A stretch of DNA of 64,000 bases from a phage: NCBI GenBank assembly GCA_019234695.1, contig GCA_019234695.1_3937.1, one strand, 5' to 3'. Below the pieces are notes generated by a model. That model worked only from the letters and a program-made list of their open reading frames with translations. It was not told where the DNA came from and searched no databases. Shown in pieces: positions 9,834 through 30,774 of the stretch. Each line of letters starts with the position of its first letter. The stretch's first letter is position 1. A program made the translations under genes and the position numbers.

Positions 9834-10159
9834 TGACTGGTATCACTGCAATCATTGCCATTTTCGCGCTATATAAGGCATATAAAGCCTATAATCTAGC
9901 AAATAAGGCAATCACACAGCAGGTTAGCAATAACCTTGTAATGAGCTTTCTAGAGCGGTTGAGCGATGAACAATTAAAGCGGTTAGAAATGAGCTTTAGA
10001 TTCAGGGCGAGAACTTATCAAATCAGCGACATTTTCAAAGATGATTTTCAATTAGTCGATGATTATAATTCTCTGATAAATGCTTTAAATATTAGTGACT
10101 TAAAAGACTATCATACTGTAATTGTTCAAGAGTTGAGCAAACGAAAACAAAACTGTTGA
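9827..10159 (+). CDS. hypothetical protein (N-terminal TM)
   Basis: ORF track; GAGGA RBS; hydrophobic N-terminus. Confidence 0.45.
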   Translation: MLMTGITAIIAIFALYKAYKAYNLANKAITQQVSNNLVMSFLERLSDEQLKRLEMSFRFRARTYQISDIFKDDFQLVDDYNSLINALNISDLKDYHTVIVQELSKRKQNC

Positions 10160-10184
10160 CACTGGTTTTTAGATAGATTAAATT
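10156..10184 (+). promoter_or_regulatory. cassette B promoter (copy 1)
   Basis: TTGACA-17-TAAATT, then hairpin and conserved RBS. Confidence 0.55.
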
Positions 10185-10248
10185 ACACATCAACGGGGAG
10201 GCAATAAACACCCCACTAAATAAAGTCCTTAAACTAGGAGATTCTAAA

Positions 10249-10653
10249 ATGGCTATTAATAATCGTGAGTTGTCAATCTTAAAAGCACGTTTAACCGTTA
10301 ATCGAATCAATGTTATCACGTCATCAGCACCGGATGAAACATTGCACAACATTATCGGGAAGATTCAAAGTGTTATCTTAGACGTTGAAAACGTAAAAAA
10401 CTCATTGTCTGACGTTGCAGCAGGCATCACGCTAGACGGTGCACAATATGAAATGGCTGACATGTTAGGCAAATCAAAGGTAATGAATAAAGAGCTTGAT
10501 TTAAAAATGTTTCGTTTTGCTGTTAAAGTGTGGCTATCTGTTGAGTATGACGCAAATTTTGCAATCGCTGACTTTTTCGCAACATGGTTGCAACGTAATT
10601 TGACAAATCATGATTTTCGCGATGTCTGTGATGCAATTTATGCAGAACTTTAA
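10249..10653 (+). CDS. hypothetical protein
   Basis: ORF track; cassette B promoter and conserved leader upstream. Confidence 0.55.
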   Translation: MAINNRELSILKARLTVNRINVITSSAPDETLHNIIGKIQSVILDVENVKNSLSDVAAGITLDGAQYEMADMLGKSKVMNKELDLKMFRFAVKVWLSVEYDANFAIADFFATWLQRNLTNHDFRDVCDAIYAEL

Positions 10654-23981: not shown

Positions 23982-25397
23982 ATGAGCGAATTATTTAAAC
24001 ATGCGAACCTTCATGCAGGTCGAACTGAAAATGGTGCTGTAAACCATACTTCATCAATGTCTGCTCTTGTAGACTTTTACAAAGCTGCTGGTTCAAGCCG
24101 TAGCAACGTAGAAATCTTACCAGACCTGTTCTACAAAGCTTTGCGTGAGGATGTTGATGTTGCAGTTCGTATTTTGCTTCATATGCGAGATGTACGAGAA
24201 GGTATGGGTGAGCGTAAAGCCTTCAGAACTGTTTTGCTTCAAGCAATTGAAGATAAAGTTTTAGAGCCTACACAGGTTCTTCGCATTATGGATAAGATTG
24301 CAGAACTTGGTCGTTTTGATGACTTCAAAATCTTCGTGGGTACTTGTTTCGAGACAGATGCCTTCAAACATTTAGAAGCAGCATTACTAGACCCTGCAAC
24401 AGCAGGTTTGGCGGCTAAGTGGTTACCACGAGTCAAACCACGTCATAAGCAGTTTGTAAAACGTTTCTGCAAGTTTGCCAACTTGAGTGAGAAAGAGTAC
24501 CGCACACTGTTGTCTGCACTATCTGATACAGTTGAGCAAAAAATCTCTGCTAATGAGTTTGGTAAGATTGACTACAGTAAGATTCCTTCACTTGCTGCTG
24601 CACGTTACCAAAAACTGTTTAACCGTAAAGATGGAGAGCGTTACAAAGCTTACATCGAGTCCTTATCAAAAGGTGAGACTAAGATTAGCGCTGGTGCTGT
24701 TTACCCATACGATGTGATTAAATCCGTCAAGCATGGTAATGCAGATGTTGCTAATGAGCAGTGGAAAGCACTACCAAACTGGATGGCAGAAGGTGAAAAC
24801 ATCTTGTGTATGTCTGATGTATCAAGTTCAATGTCTTGGGTGAATTTTGGCTCCATTACTGCTCTGGATATTGGTGTATCACTTGCCTTGTATGTAGCAG
24901 AACGCAATACAGGTTGCTTTAAGAATGAGTTGATGGTTTATTCAACAAACCCTCACTTCATCGAACTGAGTGGTGATTTACGAAACCGTCATCGTCAGGT
25001 GATGCGACACGTTGAATATGGCTCAACTAACTTACAAGCAGCTTTTGACCGCATTCTTGAGACAGGCAAAAGAAACAACTTGACTCAGAAAGATATGCCA
25101 AGTAAGCTTATCATCTTCTCCGATATGGAGTTTAATCAGGTTGATGGGGCTAACGGTCGTACAAACTTTGAAGCAATTCAGAGTAAGTACAAAAAAGCTG
25201 GATATGAGATGCCACAACTGGTATTCTGGTACTTAGCAAACCGTAATGGTACTTGCGAAGTATCTGTTAAGGATAACGGTGTAGCAATGGTATCAGGGTT
25301 CTCTCCAGCCACTTTAAAAGCTCTGCTTGGTGGTGAGAAGTTTGACCCAATCAGTGTAATGCTCAAAGCAGTAATGATTGACCGTTATATCTGGTAA
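23982..25397 (+). CDS. Ro60-like protein (helical N-terminal domain plus vWA/MIDAS domain)
   Basis: 471 aa; SDVSSSM (DxSxS MIDAS), LIIFSDMEFN and GFSPATLKAL align by eye with human Ro60 vWA segments DVSASM, FIVFTDNETF, GFDTGAL (recalled). Confidence 0.5.
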   Translation: MSELFKHANLHAGRTENGAVNHTSSMSALVDFYKAAGSSRSNVEILPDLFYKALREDVDVAVRILLHMRDVREGMGERKAFRTVLLQAIEDKVLEPTQVLRIMDKIAELGRFDDFKIFVGTCFETDAFKHLEAALLDPATAGLAAKWLPRVKPRHKQFVKRFCKFANLSEKEYRTLLSALSDTVEQKISANEFGKIDYSKIPSLAAARYQKLFNRKDGERYKAYIESLSKGETKISAGAVYPYDVIKSVKHGNADVANEQWKALPNWMAEGENILCMSDVSSSMSWVNFGSITALDIGVSLALYVAERNTGCFKNELMVYSTNPHFIELSGDLRNRHRQVMRHVEYGSTNLQAAFDRILETGKRNNLTQKDMPSKLIIFSDMEFNQVDGANGRTNFEAIQSKYKKAGYEMPQLVFWYLANRNGTCEVSVKDNGVAMVSGFSPATLKALLGGEKFDPISVMLKAVMIDRYIW

Positions 25398-25415: not shown

Positions 25416-25444
25416 TTGACAATGTGTTTAATACCCTTTAATAT
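25416..25444 (+). promoter_or_regulatory. sigma70-like promoter upstream of tRNA cluster
   Basis: TTGACA-17-TAATAT; -35 flanked by inverted repeat GGGTATT / AATACCC. Confidence 0.55.
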
Positions 25445-25506
25445 GTTCTACATAGAAACGAAATGAGAGCTTTTCTAAGATACTGAAAAATATTTTAAAA
25501 AAGTTC

Positions 25507-25536
25507 TTGACAACCACTAAAAAATAATGTTAAAGT
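25507..25536 (+). promoter_or_regulatory. second promoter upstream of tRNA cluster
   Basis: TTGACA-18-TAAAGT with inverted repeat AACCACT / AGTGGTT; ~25 nt upstream of first tRNA. Confidence 0.4.
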
Positions 25537-25560: not shown

Positions 25561-25637
25561 ATCTCTGTTTAGCTCAGCTTGGTAGAGCGTTCCGTTTGGG
25601 GCGGTAAGGCCGGAGGTTCAAGTCCTCCAACAGAGAC
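25561..25637 (+). tRNA. tRNA-Pro (anticodon TGG)
   Basis: manual cloverleaf; acceptor CTCTGTT/AACAGAG, T-arm GGAGG-TTCAAGT-CCTCC, CCA encoded. Confidence 0.65.
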
Positions 25638-25644
25638 CAAATTA

Positions 25645-25722
25645 ATGTTCCAGTGGACAAAATGGTAAAGTCACCACTCTTTCAAAGTGGATATTTGAGG
25701 GTTCAAATCCCTTCTGGAACGC
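25645..25722 (+). tRNA. tRNA-Glu (TTC)
   Basis: manual fold; anticodon arm CCACT-CTTTCAA-AGTGG; T-loop TTCAAAT. Confidence 0.7.
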
Positions 25723-25728
25723 CAGTTT

Positions 25729-25802
25729 TGACAGAAGACCAATTACAGCAAACTTAATCTTATTCATCTGAAGGTAAATCGGACAAAGAAGAGATTTGGT
25801 CT
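25729..25802 (+). ncRNA. structured hairpin RNA E1 (Y RNA-like family)
   Basis: 5-prime ACAGAAGACCAATTACAGCAA pairs with 3-prime TTGGTCTGG; between tRNA-Glu and tRNA-Met. Confidence 0.45.
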
Positions 25803-25813
25803 GGTCATTAAGA

Positions 25814-25890
25814 ATTGCGGGTATAGAGAAAGGGCGTCTCACATGTCTCATTAGCATGGTATCGGCAGGTTCGACTCCTGCACCCGCCTC
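25814..25890 (+). tRNA. tRNA-Met (CAT), atypical
   Basis: anticodon arm CATGT-CTCATTA-GCATG; 1-72 mismatch and 3-nt connector before D-stem. Confidence 0.5.
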
Positions 25891-25895
25891 CAAAT

Positions 25896-25960
25896 TTACA
25901 GAAGACCGTTTACAGCAATATTTATTAAATTTTTAGCGGAAAAATTGAAAGATACGGTCT
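25896..25960 (+). ncRNA. structured hairpin RNA E2 (Y RNA-like family)
   Basis: 5-prime ACAGAAGACCGTTTACAGCAA pairs with 3-prime ACGGTCTGG; compensatory change relative to E1/E3. Confidence 0.45.
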
Positions 25961-25973
25961 GGTAATACTAAAC

Positions 25974-26050
25974 ATGGTTAGGAAGCACATAAGGTATGTG
26001 CGGTCGCCTGTTAAGCGAATGGCACAGGGTTCGAATCCCTGACTAACCGC
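25974..26050 (+). tRNA. tRNA-Asn (GTT)
   Basis: anticodon loop CTGTTAA; D-stem GCAC/GTGC; T-arm CAGGG-TTCGAAT-CCCTG. Confidence 0.7.
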
Positions 26051-26119
26051 CAAATTTAGGAGAGAAGCGATTGCTCACCGATTTGTAAGGTTCAAGTCCT
26101 TAGCCTGAATAGAAATCAA

Positions 26120-26207
26120 ATGTGTCGTTATCCCGTAGATGGTAGCGGTGGGGACTGTAAATCCCTTGTCATTGAGACTCGGTAGGTTCGACTCCTACAC
26201 GGCACAC
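26120..26207 (+). tRNA. tRNA-Tyr (GTA), long variable arm
   Basis: 88 nt; anticodon loop CTGTAAA; T-arm GTAGG-TTCGACT-CCTAC. Confidence 0.7.
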
Positions 26208-26213
26208 CAAATA

Positions 26214-26291
26214 AAGGTTATGTAGTTTAATCTGGTTAAAATACTCCCCTGTCACGGGAGATGATGAGGGTTCAAATCCCTTCATAACCGC
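26214..26291 (+). tRNA. tRNA-Asp (GTC)
   Basis: perfect acceptor GGTTATG/CATAACC; anticodon arm CTCCC-CTGTCAC-GGGAG. Confidence 0.8.
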
Positions 26292-26352
26292 CAATTTTGA
26301 GAGGGCTATTTAGCCCCTCCCTTAAAGAGTTCTTACGAGTATTCTTTAAAGG

Positions 26353-26426
26353 AGCAGAAGACCAAATACAGCAAGCATGTATGAAATTTCAAACCAATTC
26401 AATTTTGAAAATTTAAAACTTGGTCT
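26353..26426 (+). ncRNA. structured hairpin RNA E3 (Y RNA-like family)
   Basis: 5-prime CAGAAGACCAAATACAGCAA pairs with 3-prime TTGGTCTGG. Confidence 0.45.
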
Positions 26427-26438
26427 GGCTCAACAAAT

Positions 26439-26571
26439 TTACAGAAGACCGTTTACAGCAAAACTTAAACAATCTATTTCTCCGGTAAAGAAAAGGCGAG
26501 GGTTCGATTCCTTCACTCGGCAGATGTCGAGTTGGTGTAATGGTAGCACTTAAGATGATAAACAACGGTCT
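26439..26571 (+). ncRNA. candidate Y RNA (YrlA-like) with permuted tRNA-like module
   Basis: terminal stem AGACCGTT / AACGGTCT; internal order T-arm (GAGGG-TTCGATT-CCTTC), ACTCGGC, 4-nt loop, GTCGAGT, D-arm (GTGTAATGGTAGCAC). Confidence 0.5.
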
Positions 26572-26573
26572 GG

Positions 26574-26716
26574 TAATTATCTTTGTAGATAAGTTATTAA
26601 GCTTACCTGTGAGTATGCGACCACAAAGGGTGAATGGGTAAATTCTAGATTTAAACCCAAAAAGGCACATCGCTACAGACCTTAAGCAAGTCTGGGTAGC
26701 TTATCTACAAAGATAA
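26574..26716 (+). ncRNA. long hairpin element with 18-bp terminal inverted repeat
   Basis: ATTATCTTTGTAGATAAG (26574-26591) is the exact reverse complement of CTTATCTACAAAGATAAT (26699-26716); ~107 nt interior with sub-hairpins. Confidence 0.4.
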
Positions 26717-26720
26717 TTTA

Positions 26721-26796
26721 ATGGAAGTGTAGCAGAATGGTGATGCGGCAGACTTTTAATCTGACAGGCGATGGGTTCGAATCCCTCCACTTCTAC
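26721..26796 (+). tRNA. tRNA-Lys (TTT), weak T-stem
   Basis: anticodon loop CTTTTAA; acceptor GGAAGTG/CACTTCT; T-stem has two mismatches. Confidence 0.55.
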
Positions 26797-26800
26797 CAAT

Positions 26801-26877
26801 ATGGTTCAGTCGCAGATAAGGTAATGCAAGGGTCTCATAAGCCCTATGAATGTGGGTTCGATTCCCATCTGAACCTC
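26801..26877 (+). tRNA. tRNA-Met (CAT)
   Basis: perfect acceptor GGTTCAG/CTGAACC; anticodon arm AGGGT-CTCATAA-GCCCT. Confidence 0.7.
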
Positions 26878-26878
26878 C

Positions 26879-26954
26879 AAGCTGGTATAGTTAAGAAGGT
26901 TATAACACTCCCCTGATAAGGGAACATCGGTGGTTCGATTCCACCTACCAGTAC
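26879..26954 (+). tRNA. tRNA-Ile (GAT)
   Basis: anticodon loop CTGATAA; T-arm GGTGG-TTCGATT-CCACC. Confidence 0.75.
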
Positions 26955-26969
26955 CAATTTCAATAAAGT

Positions 26970-26998
26970 TGTTGACATTGAGATGTGACTACTTTATA
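26970..26998 (+). promoter_or_regulatory. internal sigma70-like promoter within tRNA cluster
   Basis: TTGACA-17-TATAGT after tRNA-Ile; precedes ~200 nt tRNA-free structured segment. Confidence 0.55.
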
Positions 26999-27200
26999 GT
27001 AACCTTAGTTTTCGTTGCGTAGCGTCTATTTTGCAAATTTAAAATAAATGCAAACGACAATGTTTTTCTGGCAGTAGCTTGATAGGCTAAACACCAGTGA
27101 GGTCTTCCAATCCCTCATCAAAGAATTTGGCGTACTCGCCCACGGTATGATTAATAAGGTGGGCATCTTTAAGGGCTTTCTAAGAGAGTCTTTAAAGATA

Positions 27201-27277
27201 ATGCACCCTTAGTTCAATTGGATAGAGCAACGGTCTTCTAAATCGTTAGTTACAGGTTCGAATCCTGTAGGGTGTAC
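27201..27277 (+). tRNA. tRNA-Arg (TCT)
   Basis: anticodon arm ACGGT-CTTCTAA-ATCGT; T-arm ACAGG-TTCGAAT-CCTGT. Confidence 0.8.
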
Positions 27278-27419
27278 CAAATAGTTAGCAGATTACTTAG
27301 ACGGCCTTAGCGGGTCTTCCTGTAGGGAGGTGGTCTGTATCTCATGTTTTCCAGAACATGTAAATAATCTGAGAAGGAGCTTGACAGTGTTGAGATAACA
27401 GGGTAAGCTTCGAATTATA

Positions 27420-27502
27420 ATATGGGACGATGTTAAGACTCTAAGGCATGAGCAACGGCCTCCAAAACCGTTTCAAAGGGGTTCAACTCCTCCGTCCCAT
27501 GC
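27420..27502 (+). tRNA. tRNA-Trp (CCA)-like, atypical
   Basis: perfect acceptor ATGGGAC/GTCCCAT; anticodon loop CTCCAAA; ~7 extra nt between acceptor and D-arm. Confidence 0.45.
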
Positions 27503-27515
27503 CAAAGTCTTATTA

Positions 27516-27603
27516 GGGGTAGGTAGCGGCTAATGGTAGCCAAACTGTCTTGAAAACAGTTGCCACTGTAGAGATACGGTGAGGGTTCGACTCCTTTACT
27601 TAC
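27516..27603 (+). tRNA. tRNA-Ser (TGA), long variable arm
   Basis: anticodon arm ACTGT-CTTGAAA-ACAGT; 20-nt variable arm; CCA not encoded. Confidence 0.75.
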
Positions 27604-27757
27604 CGCCTAATAAGATTTACTCCGTCCATGCTTGTTCGCATTGTCGGTTTATCCCTCGTGTATTGTCGTACACTGTCAAAGCACCTAGTAGGTGTCACGG
27701 AGAAGAGATAATATCAAGCTCTCCAAAGGTTCTAGTCACCGGATTAAACAAGACTAT

Positions 27758-27780
27758 GCAAAGACCTATTTAGGTCTTTT
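27758..27780 (+). terminator. terminator-like hairpin inside tRNA cluster
   Basis: AGACCTA-TT-TAGGTCT followed by TTTTT. Confidence 0.45.
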
Positions 27781-27859
27781 TAGAGGGCTTCTAAGGTTAT
27801 TAGTCGCTTGTTGTGGAACCTTGTTGCTTAGGTTCTTAGAAGTTCTCTAAAAAGATTTA

Positions 27860-27937
27860 ATGGGAGATTGACGGTAATTGGTAAACCTACCATCCTTAGA
27901 AGTTGGTGTTTGAGGGTTCGAATCCCTTGTCTCCTAC
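27860..27937 (+). tRNA. tRNA with anticodon TAG (Leu by anticodon), short variable arm
   Basis: acceptor GGGAGAT/GTCTCCT; anticodon loop CTTAGAA; discriminator A; 5-nt variable region. Confidence 0.5.
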
Positions 27938-27944
27938 CAAATTA

Positions 27945-28020
27945 ATGCAGGTGTAGCAAAATGGTTATGCGGCTGACTCTTAATCAGTAAGACGATGGGT
28001 TCAATTCCCTCCACCTGTAC
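27945..28020 (+). tRNA. tRNA-Lys (CTT), weak T-stem
   Basis: paralog of 26721..26796; anticodon arm GCTGA-CTCTTAA-TCAGT. Confidence 0.55.
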
Positions 28021-28026
28021 CAAACA

Positions 28027-28102
28027 TTGGGGATGTAGTTTACATGGTTAAAACATAAGTTTTGCAAACTTAAGTACAGGGTTCAATTCCCTGCTTCTCC
28101 AC
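28027..28102 (+). tRNA. tRNA-Ala (TGC)
   Basis: anticodon arm TAAGT-TTTGCAA-ACTTA; T-arm CAGGG-TTCAATT-CCCTG. Confidence 0.7.
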
Positions 28103-28108
28103 CAATTA

Positions 28109-28183
28109 GTGCATCCATAGTTTAAACGGGAAAATTACAGTCTTCCAAACTGAGGTTGAGGGTTCGATTCCCTCTGGATGCTC
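28109..28183 (+). tRNA. tRNA-Gly (TCC)
   Basis: perfect acceptor GCATCCA/TGGATGC; anticodon loop CTTCCAA; 75 nt. Confidence 0.7.
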
Positions 28184-28189
28184 CAAACA

Positions 28190-28266
28190 ATGCTGCTTTC
28201 GTATAATTGGCTATTACACATCCCTTGTAAGGATGGAAATGCAGGTTCGAGTCCTGTGAGCAGCAC
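28190..28266 (+). tRNA. tRNA-Thr (TGT)
   Basis: anticodon arm CATCC-CTTGTAA-GGATG; T-arm GCAGG-TTCGAGT-CCTGT. Confidence 0.8.
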
Positions 28267-28269
28267 CAA

Positions 28270-28357
28270 TTCAGAGGTCAAGTGAAAGACCGCTTTGAGT
28301 CAACTGAAGACCGTAACAAATACCACGGAGTTGAGTTAGCGGCACAACTTCAGACCT
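28270..28357 (+). ncRNA. structured hairpin RNA E5 (divergent member)
   Basis: outer stem CAGAGGTC / GACCTCTG; internal CTGAAGACCGTAACAAA resembles the E-family 5-prime motif. Confidence 0.35.
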
Positions 28358-28362
28358 CTTTC

Positions 28363-28437
28363 ATACTCGCTTAGTTTATATGGTAAAACATCACCCTTAC
28401 AAGATGAAGAAAAAGGTTCAAGTCCTTTAGTGAGTAC
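28363..28437 (+). tRNA. tRNA-Val (TAC)
   Basis: anticodon loop CTTACAA; T-arm AAAGG-TTCAAGT-CCTTT. Confidence 0.7.
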
Positions 28438-28438
28438 C

Positions 28439-28516
28439 ATGTTCCAGTATCCCAATTGGCAGAGGATGCAAGCTCAAACCTTGTATTAGTGACGGTTCGA
28501 ATCCGTCTTGGAACAC
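28439..28516 (+). tRNA. tRNA with anticodon CAA (Leu by anticodon), short variable arm
   Basis: acceptor GTTCCAG/TTGGAAC; anticodon arm GCAAG-CTCAAAC-CTTGT; discriminator A. Confidence 0.5.
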
Positions 28517-28521
28517 CAATT

Positions 28522-28597
28522 TTGCAGGATTAGTTCAAATGGAAAGAGCAACAGTCTACGAAGCTGTTAATAGGGGTTCGAATCCCTTATCCTGCGC
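28522..28597 (+). tRNA. tRNA-Arg (ACG)
   Basis: perfect acceptor GCAGGAT/ATCCTGC; anticodon loop CTACGAA. Confidence 0.8.
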
Positions 28598-28616
28598 CAG
28601 ATAAAAAGGTGATACT

Positions 28617-28859
28617 ATGCAAACATTAACAGTAGTTGAACATGAAAACTGTGAGAGTATTGAGTTTGTCAGGGTCATTGGTGTTGAACACCACATTTTC
28701 TTAAAAGTGGGATACTTATGCGACCCCGCTAGAGTAGAAAGATTTATACGTGATTGTTTTGGTGGTAGACATCTGAAGAGTGTTATTTTTGAGACAGTTT
28801 TACCAGAAGGTTTAGAAACGAATAATAACATTTACCTCCTTACGAGGATTAGACAATGA
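28617..28859 (+). CDS. hypothetical small protein embedded in tRNA cluster
   Basis: ORF track; AAAGGTG RBS-like upstream. Confidence 0.4.
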   Translation: MQTLTVVEHENCESIEFVRVIGVEHHIFLKVGYLCDPARVERFIRDCFGGRHLKSVIFETVLPEGLETNNNIYLLTRIRQ

Positions 28860-29413
28860 GATACTTAAAGTATGCTTCATGGATTTTCTTAGCTTTGTTA
28901 GAGCCATTTGCAGCAATCTTAGCAGTTATCTTAGCACCTTTTGTAGTTCCATTCTACAGTGAGAAGAAAGGACACTTACCTTTCGGGTTCAGATGGATGG
29001 AGACATATGACAACCCAATTGATGGTGATGAAGGTCACGTTAAAAGATGGGCTAATATTAGATGGATTGGTAAACTAGGTGTCTACATGCAAAGAGTCGG
29101 ATGGCTCTGGAGAAACAAAGCTTATAACTTCTCTTACCATGTATTAGGAAGAGATGTAAGAGATGTTACTAAGTGGAAAGGTAATATCAACGTAAGTTCT
29201 AACCCTGAAGATAATCAGACTGGTTATCTCCTAATGTGGAACAGTAATGCTTGGGGATTATTCGCTTTTATCCCATCAATTAAAGTCTTCGGTAAACAGT
29301 TTTACTGGAGAATTTATGTTGGATGGAAACTTAAAAGTGTTGTCCCAGAAGAAAGAGCATTCTCAAGGGAAAGAGTTATGTTGGCATTCTTTATTCATCC
29401 ACTGAGAAAGTAA
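28856..29413 (+). CDS. hypothetical membrane protein embedded in tRNA cluster
   Basis: ORF track; hydrophobic N-terminus; 4-nt start/stop overlap with upstream ORF. Confidence 0.5.
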   Translation: MRYLKYASWIFLALLEPFAAILAVILAPFVVPFYSEKKGHLPFGFRWMETYDNPIDGDEGHVKRWANIRWIGKLGVYMQRVGWLWRNKAYNFSYHVLGRDVRDVTKWKGNINVSSNPEDNQTGYLLMWNSNAWGLFAFIPSIKVFGKQFYWRIYVGWKLKSVVPEERAFSRERVMLAFFIHPLRK

Positions 29414-29420
29414 AGATTTA

Positions 29421-29496
29421 AAGGGGATTAGTTTACAAGGTTAAAACCTCGGTCTTTGAAATCGAAGAAGTTGGTTCAATTCCAACATCCCCCGCC
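29421..29496 (+). tRNA. tRNA-Gln (TTG)
   Basis: anticodon arm TCGGT-CTTTGAA-ATCGA; T-arm GTTGG-TTCAATT-CCAAC; weak 1-72 pair. Confidence 0.65.
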
Positions 29497-29498
29497 AA

Positions 29499-29577
29499 TG
29501 CTCCATTACTCCAATTGGCAGAGAGGCCAGACTTAAAATCTGTGTTATGTATCGGTTCGAATCCGATATGGAGTACC
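29499..29577 (+). tRNA. tRNA with anticodon TAA (Leu by anticodon), short variable arm
   Basis: acceptor GCTCCAT/ATGGAGT; anticodon loop CTTAAAA; 7-nt variable region; discriminator A. Confidence 0.5.
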
Positions 29578-29582
29578 AAATT

Positions 29583-29658
29583 TAGCGGTATAGCATAACT
29601 GGCAATGCAGCAGTCTCTGAAGCTGTCCTATTAAGGTTCAAATCCTTATGCCGCTGCC
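29583..29658 (+). tRNA. tRNA-Gln (CTG)
   Basis: D-stem GCAT/ATGC; anticodon loop CTCTGAA; T-arm TAAGG-TTCAAAT-CCTTA. Confidence 0.6.
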
Positions 29659-29689
29659 ACTTCTAAGGATTCTTACGAGAGTCCTTAAA

Positions 29690-29765
29690 TGTGGCCTTAT
29701 CATAAATGGTAATGCCCCATGCTGTGAACATGGTCTATACGGGTTCAAATCCCGTAGGTCACCCC
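29690..29765 (+). tRNA. tRNA-His (GTG)
   Basis: perfect anticodon arm CCATG-CTGTGAA-CATGG; T-arm ACGGG-TTCAAAT-CCCGT. Confidence 0.75.
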
Positions 29766-29771
29766 AATTTA

Positions 29772-29847
29772 TAGTCCAAGTAGCTTATATGGTTAAAGCG
29801 CGTGTCTGAAAAACATGAGAAGAGGGTTCAAATCCCACTGGACTACC
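29772..29847 (+). tRNA. tRNA-Phe (GAA)
   Basis: anticodon loop CTGAAAA; D-stem GCTT/AAGC; acceptor register ambiguous by 1 nt. Confidence 0.65.
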
Positions 29848-29864
29848 AATTTCAAAGGTGCTTA

Positions 29865-30599
29865 ATGAAAGAGATGACAGAACAAGGTAAGGAGATTTTC
29901 AATCTCTTAAAAACCGGTAAAGGGTTTTCTAACCCCCTTATTACTGGTGCAGCAGTTCTCGGTGGAACCGTAGCTGCCTCTACATCACTTGTAAGCTCTA
30001 TTAGCTCTGTATCAGACCCTACAGTAAAGGATAAGCTTGTTGCTGCTGGACTTACAACAGTTCTGCTTAACAGCTTTACCACGAGTCTGACAAGCACTAC
30101 ATCAACTACCAAAACACTAACAGATTACGGTCAAAAGTCCATTGATGAGTTTTCATCACGTATGCAGGTAGCAAAAGGTTACTCTAATGTTATGGGTGCA
30201 GCAGGTGAACAAGTTGGCTGTACACCATTTAGTGGTATTATGGGTGTTGCTACAGAGTATGGTCAAAAAACTATTGATACGATTAACAGTGCACTAGATA
30301 GTGTTAATGGTGTGTTAAGTGACTTACAAGATGCTATTGACAAAGGTCTTGATACTATTTCTGATTTAGCTGAGCAAGCTGTTAGTAAGATTAATGAAGG
30401 TATTTCAAAAATTACAGCTTATGCAGATGAAGTTGTGCAGATGATTGAAGAAGAAGCTGCTCTTATTGCAGAGTACCTTAAAACGAATATCAATGGGTTC
30501 TTAGCAGGTATCTTACCAGACTGGTTTGATGATGCTTGTAAAACTGGTGTAATTGACACTATTGCAACACCAGAAATGAAGAACGCATTACAGAAATAA
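29865..30599 (+). CDS. hypothetical Ser/Thr/Ala-rich protein embedded in tRNA cluster
   Basis: ORF 29802..30599 trimmed to internal ATG at 29865 because upstream part overlaps tRNA-Phe. Confidence 0.5.
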   Translation: MKEMTEQGKEIFNLLKTGKGFSNPLITGAAVLGGTVAASTSLVSSISSVSDPTVKDKLVAAGLTTVLLNSFTTSLTSTTSTTKTLTDYGQKSIDEFSSRMQVAKGYSNVMGAAGEQVGCTPFSGIMGVATEYGQKTIDTINSALDSVNGVLSDLQDAIDKGLDTISDLAEQAVSKINEGISKITAYADEVVQMIEEEAALIAEYLKTNINGFLAGILPDWFDDACKTGVIDTIATPEMKNALQK

Positions 30600-30601
30600 A
30601 T

Positions 30602-30694
30602 GGAAGATTAACCCTAAAAGGTAAGGGAGCAGTTTGCTAAACTGCCAGTAGCTGAGAAATCGGTGTACCAGTTCAAGTCTGGTATCTTCCTCCA
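30602..30694 (+). tRNA. tRNA-Ser (GCT), long variable arm
   Basis: 93 nt; perfect acceptor GGAAGAT/ATCTTCC; perfect anticodon arm GCAGT-TTGCTAA-ACTGC. Confidence 0.8.
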
Positions 30695-30698
30695 ATTT

Positions 30699-30774
30699 GA
30701 ATCCGTGACAGAAACGGCTATGTGCCTGTCTGCAAAACAGGTTTATAAGGGTTCGAGTCCCTTCGGATTCTCCA
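30699..30774 (+). tRNA. tRNA-Cys (GCA)
   Basis: perfect acceptor GAATCCG/CGGATTC; perfect anticodon arm CCTGT-CTGCAAA-ACAGG. Confidence 0.8.

Follow-up and report, generated by a model that had tools for sequence, protein, structure and literature searches.

A conserved, probably functional structured RNA beside a YrlA-like RNA and a Ro60-like gene in the tRNA cluster of Felix O1-like phages

Non-tRNA products of phage transfer RNA (tRNA) gene clusters have been unexplained since the 'species 1' and 'species 2' RNAs of T4 (rnaC and rnaD), stable RNAs of roughly 120 to 140 nt from the T4 tRNA gene cluster that are cut from tRNA precursors and have no known function. In bacteria, Ro60 loci typically specify at least two Y RNAs, which are processed out of a common precursor (PMC4201824). 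Here we describe an element at positions 26575-26718, on the + strand of a 64,000-nt stretch of phage DNA (contig GCA_019234695.1_3937.1; hereafter the window), that lies among tRNA genes and downstream of a gene for a Ro60-like protein. By analogy with the bacterial loci, it sits exactly in the position of their 'second RNA'. The element is very probably a functional structured RNA and not a mobile element. On balance we lean slightly towards the combined statement that it is a structured non-coding RNA (ncRNA) working as a Ro60 partner; taken by itself, the partnership with Ro60, drawn from analogy, is a tentative proposal.

The element is delimited by an inverted repeat. The 18-mer ATTATCTTTGTAGATAAG occurs once in the window, at 26576-26593, and its exact reverse complement lies at 26700-26717. 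The perfect duplex extends to 19 bp (26575-26593 with 26700-26718), repeat detection returned arms of 22 nt at 95%, and with G·U pairs counted the helix, which we call P1, comprises 24 pairs (21 Watson-Crick and three G·U). An initial annotation of this DNA had placed a perfect 18-bp repeat at 26574-26716; the repeat is real, and the coordinates were off by 1 to 2 nt. The sub-hairpin that it pointed out, CAGAC-CTTAAGCAA-GTCTG, is the hairpin P4 of Table 1. Its view of the stem as far longer than a processing hairpin needs did not hold up: RNase III substrates are helices of roughly two turns, about 20 bp or more, and P1, at 24 bp and with its length conserved across lineages, falls in that size class. 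The repeat exceeds chance, with two matches observed against 0.13 in shuffled sequences (at most three mismatches), and, of all long inverted repeats within 300 nt in the window, it has the highest complementarity. The minimum free energy (MFE) of the + strand is -49.2 kcal/mol, compared with -28.7 ± 3.7 for shuffles (z = -5.5).

The window belongs to a Felix O1-like phage (Felixounavirus, Ounavirinae), and a 701-nt query around the element matched 264 phage records at up to 99% identity. The element itself was found in 237 records with one query and in 250 with the other, in Ounavirinae and at the same locus every time; no empty site was found among the approximately 250 related phage genomes. 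About 190 records form type A, at least 94.7% identical, and about 60 (Mooglevirus, Suspvirus and some Felixounavirus) form type B, roughly 71% identical. A relaxed stem-only pattern gave mostly chance matches in IMG/VR, and a tighter pattern was used instead. More distant relatives, including lineage C (type C), were reached through homologues of the protein encoded upstream (53-63% identity); all were syntenic, and all carry a related element directly 5' of a tRNA-Lys gene. Across the nine lineages the element is 140 to 162 nt long, P1 has 20 to 24 pairs, and P4, which adjoins the 3' strand of P1, has 5 to 6 pairs and a 9-nt loop that reads CUUAAGCAA, CUUUAGCAA, CCUUAGCAA, CUUUAGUAA or CCUAUGCAA (consensus CUUWAGCAA).

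Compensatory changes support the structure. RNAalifold, applied to 28 unique type A and type B sequences, predicted P1, the tip of P3 and P4, with double changes at four pairs of P1, one of P3 and one of P4. The P4 loop is complementary to a strand 0 to 4 nt past the P1 5' arm, and this pseudoknot pairing occurs in three compensatory states (GCUUA:UAAGC, GCUAA:UUAGC and UUACUA:UAGUAA), spanning 5 to 7 bp in seven of the nine lineages. We then aligned P1, the pseudoknot and P4 under guidance of the structure, leaving out the interior and padding with N; MAFFT mis-registered two rows, an error that works against the structure. In this alignment, fitted by hand to the structure, 90.6% of the cells were paired, compared with 72.7% in shuffles (0 of 500 as high) and 29-43% when the partners were slid, and both sides had changed in 27 of 39 pairs. 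For P4, all cells (100%) were paired and five of six pairs covaried.

Two checks were independent of the hand-fitted alignment. With types A and B as its only input, a covariance model found lineage C (E about 1e-9) and a further related locus, L261 (E about 9e-5). A descriptor requiring the loop motif, P4 and no fewer than 17 of the 20 P1 pairs matched every Ounavirinae-type locus and nothing in about 190 unrelated or distant loci (roughly 2.5 Mb per strand). Iterative refinement of the covariance model was dropped because the near-palindromic P1 draws reverse-strand matches that contaminate the alignment. Within P1 and P4 there are 49 G·U pairs against 3 A·C mismatches, and the constraint therefore acts on the + strand RNA, not on the DNA or the opposite strand. 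The two sequence types and six more distant lineages retain one and the same architecture by way of compensatory changes.

Inside P1, the helices differ in how widely they can be followed. Hairpins P2 and P3 are supported in types A, B and C and are claimed for these types only, because MFE folding of the interior alone was inconsistent across distant lineages, and the most distant ones did not yield them consistently. The loop motif of P2, (G)AGUAUGC, recurs among relatives, and its stem becomes GGGG/CCCC at the lineage C locus L176. P3, with the loop CUA, shows compensatory changes between G-C and A-U at alignment columns 67/88 and changes between A-U and G·U at columns 72/82, and its stem reads GAGC/GCUU in relatives. 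An alternative pairing of CUAC (26672-26675) with GUAG (26696-26699), which would make P4 resemble the Y RNA-like modules described below, was rejected because lineage C has ACAG in place of GUAG, pairing with GCUGU in P1. The parts of the element and its main neighbours are listed in Table 1.

Table 1. Parts of the RNA element and neighbouring features (window coordinates)
Feature	Position	Strand	Remarks
P1 5' arm, AAUUAUCUUUGUAGAUAAGUUAUU	26575-26598	+	24 pairs with 26695-26718
Pseudoknot 5' strand, GCUUA	26601-26605	+	2 nt past P1; partner UAAGC in P4 loop
P2 hairpin, UGUG/CACA, loop AGUAUGCGAC	26608-26625	+	Putative, read from the sequences; least certain helix
P3 hairpin, GGGU-AAAUU-CUA-GAUUU-AA-ACCC	26636-26658	+	From folding and RNAalifold
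P4 hairpin, CAGAC/GUCUG, 9-nt loop CUUAAGCAA (26681-26689)	26676-26694	+	Adjoins P1 3' arm
Pseudoknot 3' strand	26683-26687	+	Inside P4 loop
P1 3' arm, GGUAGCUUAUCUACAAAGAUAAUU	26695-26718	+	Pairs with P1 5' arm
YrlA-like RNA	26434-26576	+	Y-like bulged stem plus permuted T-arm, closed acceptor stem and D-arm
Spacer UAAU (4 nt), then tRNA-Lys(UUU) (26723-26798)	26719-26798	+	
Two sigma-70-like promoter matches (25416-25444 and 25507-25536)	25416-25536	+	Upstream of first tRNA
Ro60-like protein, 471 amino acids, DUF2828 and DUF7788	23982-25397	+	TROVE-like ring and vWA domain; MIDAS (metal ion-dependent adhesion site) motif DVSGSM

None of the 4,227 Rfam models gave a match overlapping 26575-26718, whether gathering thresholds or a cutoff of E = 10 was applied, and at the nine related loci the best 150 of 167 matches at gathering thresholds were all tRNA. 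No GenBank record marks the element as an RNA, and we found no description of its RNA in Rfam, GenBank annotations or the searchable literature. The element is an undescribed RNA family. Of the two readings offered by the initial annotation, that of a structured RNA is the one backed by the conservation, the compensatory changes, the G·U excess on the + strand and the place in the tRNA transcription unit.

The cluster around the element holds 26 tRNA genes, all on the + strand, from 25563 to 30774, and most of these tRNAs are only 1 to 9 nt apart. Beyond the two promoter matches ahead of the first tRNA, the next match, at 26972-27000, lies past tRNA-Ile, and no + strand terminator-like site was found between them; the same promoters are annotated in phage ASO1A. 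This layout places the element inside the first tRNA transcription unit. The tRNA-Lys gene on its 3' side is present in all nine lineages and is tRNA-Lys(UUU) in eight; locus L260 has tRNA-Lys(CUU) ahead of tRNA-Lys(UUU).

The start of the element is 1,178 nt downstream of where the open reading frame (ORF) for the Ro60-like protein ends, on the same strand, which is the proximity expected of a Y RNA gene. The product of this ORF falls in PHROG 850, 'RNA-binding protein', and belongs to the DUF2828 family, not to the Pfam TROVE family. A PDB sequence search with the protein gave no match, and its kinship to Ro60 is by fold only. For an AlphaFold model built with 24 homologues (predicted local distance difference test score, 81.6), the top 11 PDB matches were all Ro60 structures, matched over the full length (E 6e-8 to 8e-6; template modelling score, 0.5-0.64), and included Xenopus Ro60, Deinococcus Rsr and the Ro60 of Thermus phage phiLo; the predicted fold is thus Ro60-like, and the DVSGSM motif is retained in the homologue alignment. 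Gene product gp130 of phage Bas63 is the orthologue. A preprint describes gp130 as Ro60-like and as countering the ppl defence, its deletion giving smaller plaques on ppl cells; the authors guessed that some 'tRNA genes' downstream of gp130 may be Y RNAs (PMC11482910). More than 1,800 homologues of the protein were found, mostly on phage contigs, and for many of them the annotation goes no further than 'RNA-binding protein' or DUF2828.

Four Y RNA-like modules stand among the tRNAs on the + strand, at 25724-25812, 25891-25972, 26346-26426 and 26434-26576. The sequences common to them, CAGAAGACCNNNUACAGCAA (5' side) and GGUCUGG (3' side), form a stem that is bulged at AGA(A)/(U)G; the bulge motif, CAGAAG, differs from the published GNCGAAN0-1G. 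The permuted tRNA-like domain of the fourth module is of the YrlA design (PMC4201824). This YrlA-like RNA has a partial tRNA match at 26465-26515 and adjoins P1, sharing 2 nt with it. The 5' strand of P1 loosely resembles the UUUACAGCAA part of the modules, a sequence likeness to which we give low weight. At locus L177 the closing stem of the element is a Y-like bulged stem of the same design as that phage's own Y-like modules, and it is here only that the stem of the element contains a Y-like 3x3 internal loop. At the lineage C loci (L176 6135-6421; L259 4728-5013), the element comes directly after the third Y-like module, and the Ro60-like protein is 62-63% identical.

A second long-stem element lies on the + strand at 27765-27864 and ends directly 5' of tRNA-Leu(UAG). 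Its stem is about 28 bp (MFE -42.9, z -6.5), and it is conserved in types B and C. The outer stem, UCUUUNUAG/CUANAAAGA, and the 3' junction, UUUAAUGG, resemble those of the element studied here, and from this likeness in sequence the two may be paralogues. The apical loop of the second element contains an invariant UUGUUGCU, complementary to the AGCAA common to the P4 loop and all the Y-like modules. Kissing of the P4 loop with this loop (UUGUUGCUU) was considered, as an invariant 5-nt match with no covariation, and was rejected because the intramolecular partner of the P4 loop covaries and the match to the second element does not.

We propose that the element is the gene for a highly structured ncRNA of approximately 144 nt on the + strand. 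The promoters upstream of tRNA-Pro would drive its transcription within a single precursor, in the order tRNA-Pro, tRNA-Glu, Y-like, tRNA-Met, Y-like, tRNA-Asn, tRNA-Tyr, tRNA-Asp, Y-like, YrlA-like, element, tRNA-Lys, tRNA-Met, tRNA-Ile. The 3' end would be fixed by RNase P, which cuts where tRNA-Lys begins, 4 nt downstream, and a cut at or within P1 would free the 5' end, with RNase III the obvious candidate for a duplex of 20 to 24 bp; alternatively, the 5' end could be released by processing of the adjoining YrlA-like RNA. P1 clamps both ends and would protect the RNA against exonucleases. It surrounds a compact core made up of the hairpins P2, P3 and P4, together with a pseudoknot that joins the P4 loop (CUUWAGCAA) to the strand just past P1. 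We suggest that the RNA, acting in trans, works with the phage Ro60-like protein as a second Y RNA of an atypical kind, unlike tRNA, and is a possible counterpart of YrlB and Yrn2, the RNAs that accompany YrlA and Yrn1 in bacteria. Going further, it could be a pseudoknotted Y RNA of a new class, one without tRNA mimicry, and, with the YrlA-like RNA and the three other Y-like modules, serve as subunit or regulator of a Ro60-like anti-defence particle, a proposal that we hold to be speculative. If it is true, the 24-bp clamp and pseudoknotted core might gate the protein ring or bring a host nuclease or target to the gp130-type particle.

Several observations weigh against a Ro60-associated ncRNA. 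In types A, B and C, P1 is continuous, with neither the bulge nor the GNCGAA/CGAA Ro-binding motif of Y RNAs. No tRNA or tRNA-like match was found within 26575-26718, even at E up to 10, which separates the element from YrlA. Lineage C keeps the element and is without the YrlA-like RNA. The pseudoknot has only 4 bp at locus L260 and is absent at L263, and the controls of the hand-fitted alignment lean towards structure. Among 75 distant phage loci with DUF2828 proteins (39-44% identity), no copy of the element was detectable, and its RNA is therefore no obligatory partner of that protein family. We found no expression, end-mapping or binding data for the element, and nothing relevant in the literature on the transcriptomes and ncRNAs of Felix O1 and Felixounavirus.

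A purely cis-acting role, in which the helix is an RNase III site that separates the YrlA-like RNA from tRNA-Lys or sets their ends and the excised piece has no function, is an explanation we consider rather unlikely, although several features fit it. The length of P1 (20 to 24 bp) is conserved and its sequence is not, as would suit a structure-specific nuclease of double-stranded RNA, and an irregularity close to the middle of P1 occurs in several lineages. The element is wedged, with spacers of 0 to 4 nt, between two RNAs that need processing, and the second long-stem element, with its stem of about 28 bp, ends directly 5' of tRNA-Leu(UAG). However, a processing site has no need of an interior of approximately 95 nt that has hairpins and a 9-nt loop, both conserved, and a covarying pseudoknot, and most tRNAs of the cluster are separated by 1 to 9 nt without any such module. 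In Escherichia phage ESCO56 (OM386665.1; L149 590-830), the element is intact between two deletions: one took away most of the YrlA-like RNA together with two Y-like modules and tRNA-Asp, and the other took tRNA-Lys, tRNA-Met and tRNA-Ile; the element has thus been retained even though the flanking RNAs to be processed are gone.

The constant neighbour on the 3' side could suggest instead that the RNA is a decoy or inhibitor of host defence, which titrates an anticodon nuclease of tRNA-Lys or a sensor of double-stranded RNA independently of the Ro60-like protein. The tRNA-Lys gene follows the element in every lineage, although the order of the other tRNAs varies, and phage tRNA clusters have been linked to defence evasion (cited in PMC11482910). 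The P4 loop starts with CUU and ends with AA, as does the tRNA-Lys anticodon loop CUUUUAA, and the type A stem has CAGA/UCUG as in the tRNA. Against this, the loop, 9 nt long and not 7, is predicted to be tied up in the pseudoknot, and the stems of P4 vary independently of the anticodon stems of tRNA-Lys in eight lineages. Mimicry of the tRNA-Lys anticodon arm by P4 was rejected for this lack of co-variation, and we judge the decoy improbable.

Less probable still is a catalytic RNA, self-cleaving or of another kind, by which the precursor would be cut at the element's own boundary. Its compact pseudoknotted fold, its few invariant loop nucleotides and its place exactly at processing junctions would agree with a ribozyme. 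However, no Rfam ribozyme family gave a match at E values as high as 10, the lineages have few invariant nucleotides in common, and P2 and P3 are highly variable. A clamped terminal helix of 24 bp is also atypical of known small ribozymes.

The other reading of the initial annotation, a miniature inverted-repeat element (MITE) inserted into the tRNA cluster, finds next to no support here, and the same can be said of other mobile DNA or a DNA-level cruciform signal. The terminal inverted repeats, the size of approximately 144 bp and the partly similar outer stem UCUUUNUAG/CUANAAAGA of the second long-stem element are what one would expect of a MITE. Nevertheless, the element occupies the same locus in about 250 genomes with no empty site and hence no presence/absence polymorphism, the flanks GGT| and |TAAT contain no target-site duplication, and the window has one copy. 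No copy turned up in the bacterial genomes searched: a motif scan of 185,579 species genomes (GTDB, one per species) found none, and, as regards host origin or mimicry, there was no match in 5,426 E. coli genomes. The orthologues have diverged in place with compensatory changes, and an excess of G·U over A·C would be meaningless for a DNA duplex or cruciform.

A small protein encoded at the element can be practically dismissed: a stop-free minus-strand frame of 95 codons does overlap it in type A and several GenBank records annotate ORFs here, such as the minus-strand 'hypothetical protein' bas63_0138, but the frame is antisense to the tRNA operon and is not conserved in types B and C or the distant lineages, which differ by indels of 1, 2 and 5 nt and offer at most 45 codons, at other positions. 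In Bas63 (MZ501086.1; L266 1654-1928), two such short minus-strand calls, bas63_0137 on the YrlA-like RNA and bas63_0138 on the element, are probably spurious. Since both lie on RNAs, any knockout fitness reported for them would reflect the RNAs.

Other features of the region were noted in passing. The stretch 26053-26121 (+), between tRNA-Asn and tRNA-Tyr, is a degenerate tRNA-like sequence with a T-arm-like GGTTCAAGTCC; phage ASO1A lacks it, and the two tRNAs are 9 nt apart there. Sub-threshold matches to the permuted transfer-messenger RNA (tmRNA) and tmRNA models (29 and 16 bits) fall within 26898-27202 (+), downstream of the strongest promoter match, 26972-27000 (TTGACA-17-TATAGT), in an unannotated stretch of approximately 200 nt 5' of tRNA-Arg. 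Locus L264 is on a 143-kb phage contig that has a tRNA cluster and a Ro60-like gene of 51% identity; an OrfB_IS605/Cas12f-like TnpB gene (9893-10440) stands directly 3' of that cluster.

The practical interest of the locus lies in its phages. Felix O1-like phages are in wide use for typing and biocontrol of Salmonella and E. coli, and Bas63 is a model phage. The element and its neighbours offer concrete, conserved RNA candidates for a Ro60-like protein implicated in overcoming defence, and minus-strand 'hypothetical protein' calls such as bas63_0138 can be corrected as probably spurious.

Among known systems, the likeness to MITEs is confined to the terminal repeats and the size; the single conserved locus, the absence of polymorphism, of other copies and of a target-site duplication, and the constraint on RNA pairing all set the element apart from them. 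RNase III stalks are closer. These helices flank 16S and 23S ribosomal RNA (rRNA), and similar sites occur in the early region of phage T7; as in the stalks, a helix of at least 20 bp surrounds a structured RNA in a polycistronic transcript, and its length, not its sequence, is conserved. Unlike the rRNA stalks, the element encloses a small RNA with a conserved tertiary contact of its own, and its cleavage is a prediction only. With the species 1 and 2 RNAs of T4 it shares the size class and the place among phage tRNA genes; no Ro60-like gene is known beside the T4 cluster.

The closest comparison is with the Y RNAs, for which we considered YrlA and YrlB (Salmonella and Mycobacterium), Yrn1 and Yrn2 (Deinococcus) and Yrl1 and Yrl2 (Thermus phage phiLo). 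Like these, the element shares its strand with a Ro60-like gene no more than about 1.2 kb away and is in the Y RNA size range of approximately 100 to 150 nt, and its 5' and 3' ends pair in a long stem (24 bp here, 20 to 24 bp in the nine lineages) around a structured module. Like YrlB beside YrlA (PMC4201824; PMC12135203), it has as its neighbour in the presumed common precursor a tRNA-like RNA of the YrlA type. It differs from the Y RNAs in its pseudoknotted core of several hairpins and in its neighbour, a DUF2828 protein related to Ro60 by fold only. The element is not filed as a Y RNA because it lacks one defining Y RNA feature; it is best filed among the non-tRNA structured RNAs of phage tRNA clusters and the Ro60-associated RNAs, and it would enlarge the short list of non-tRNA structured RNA families from such clusters.
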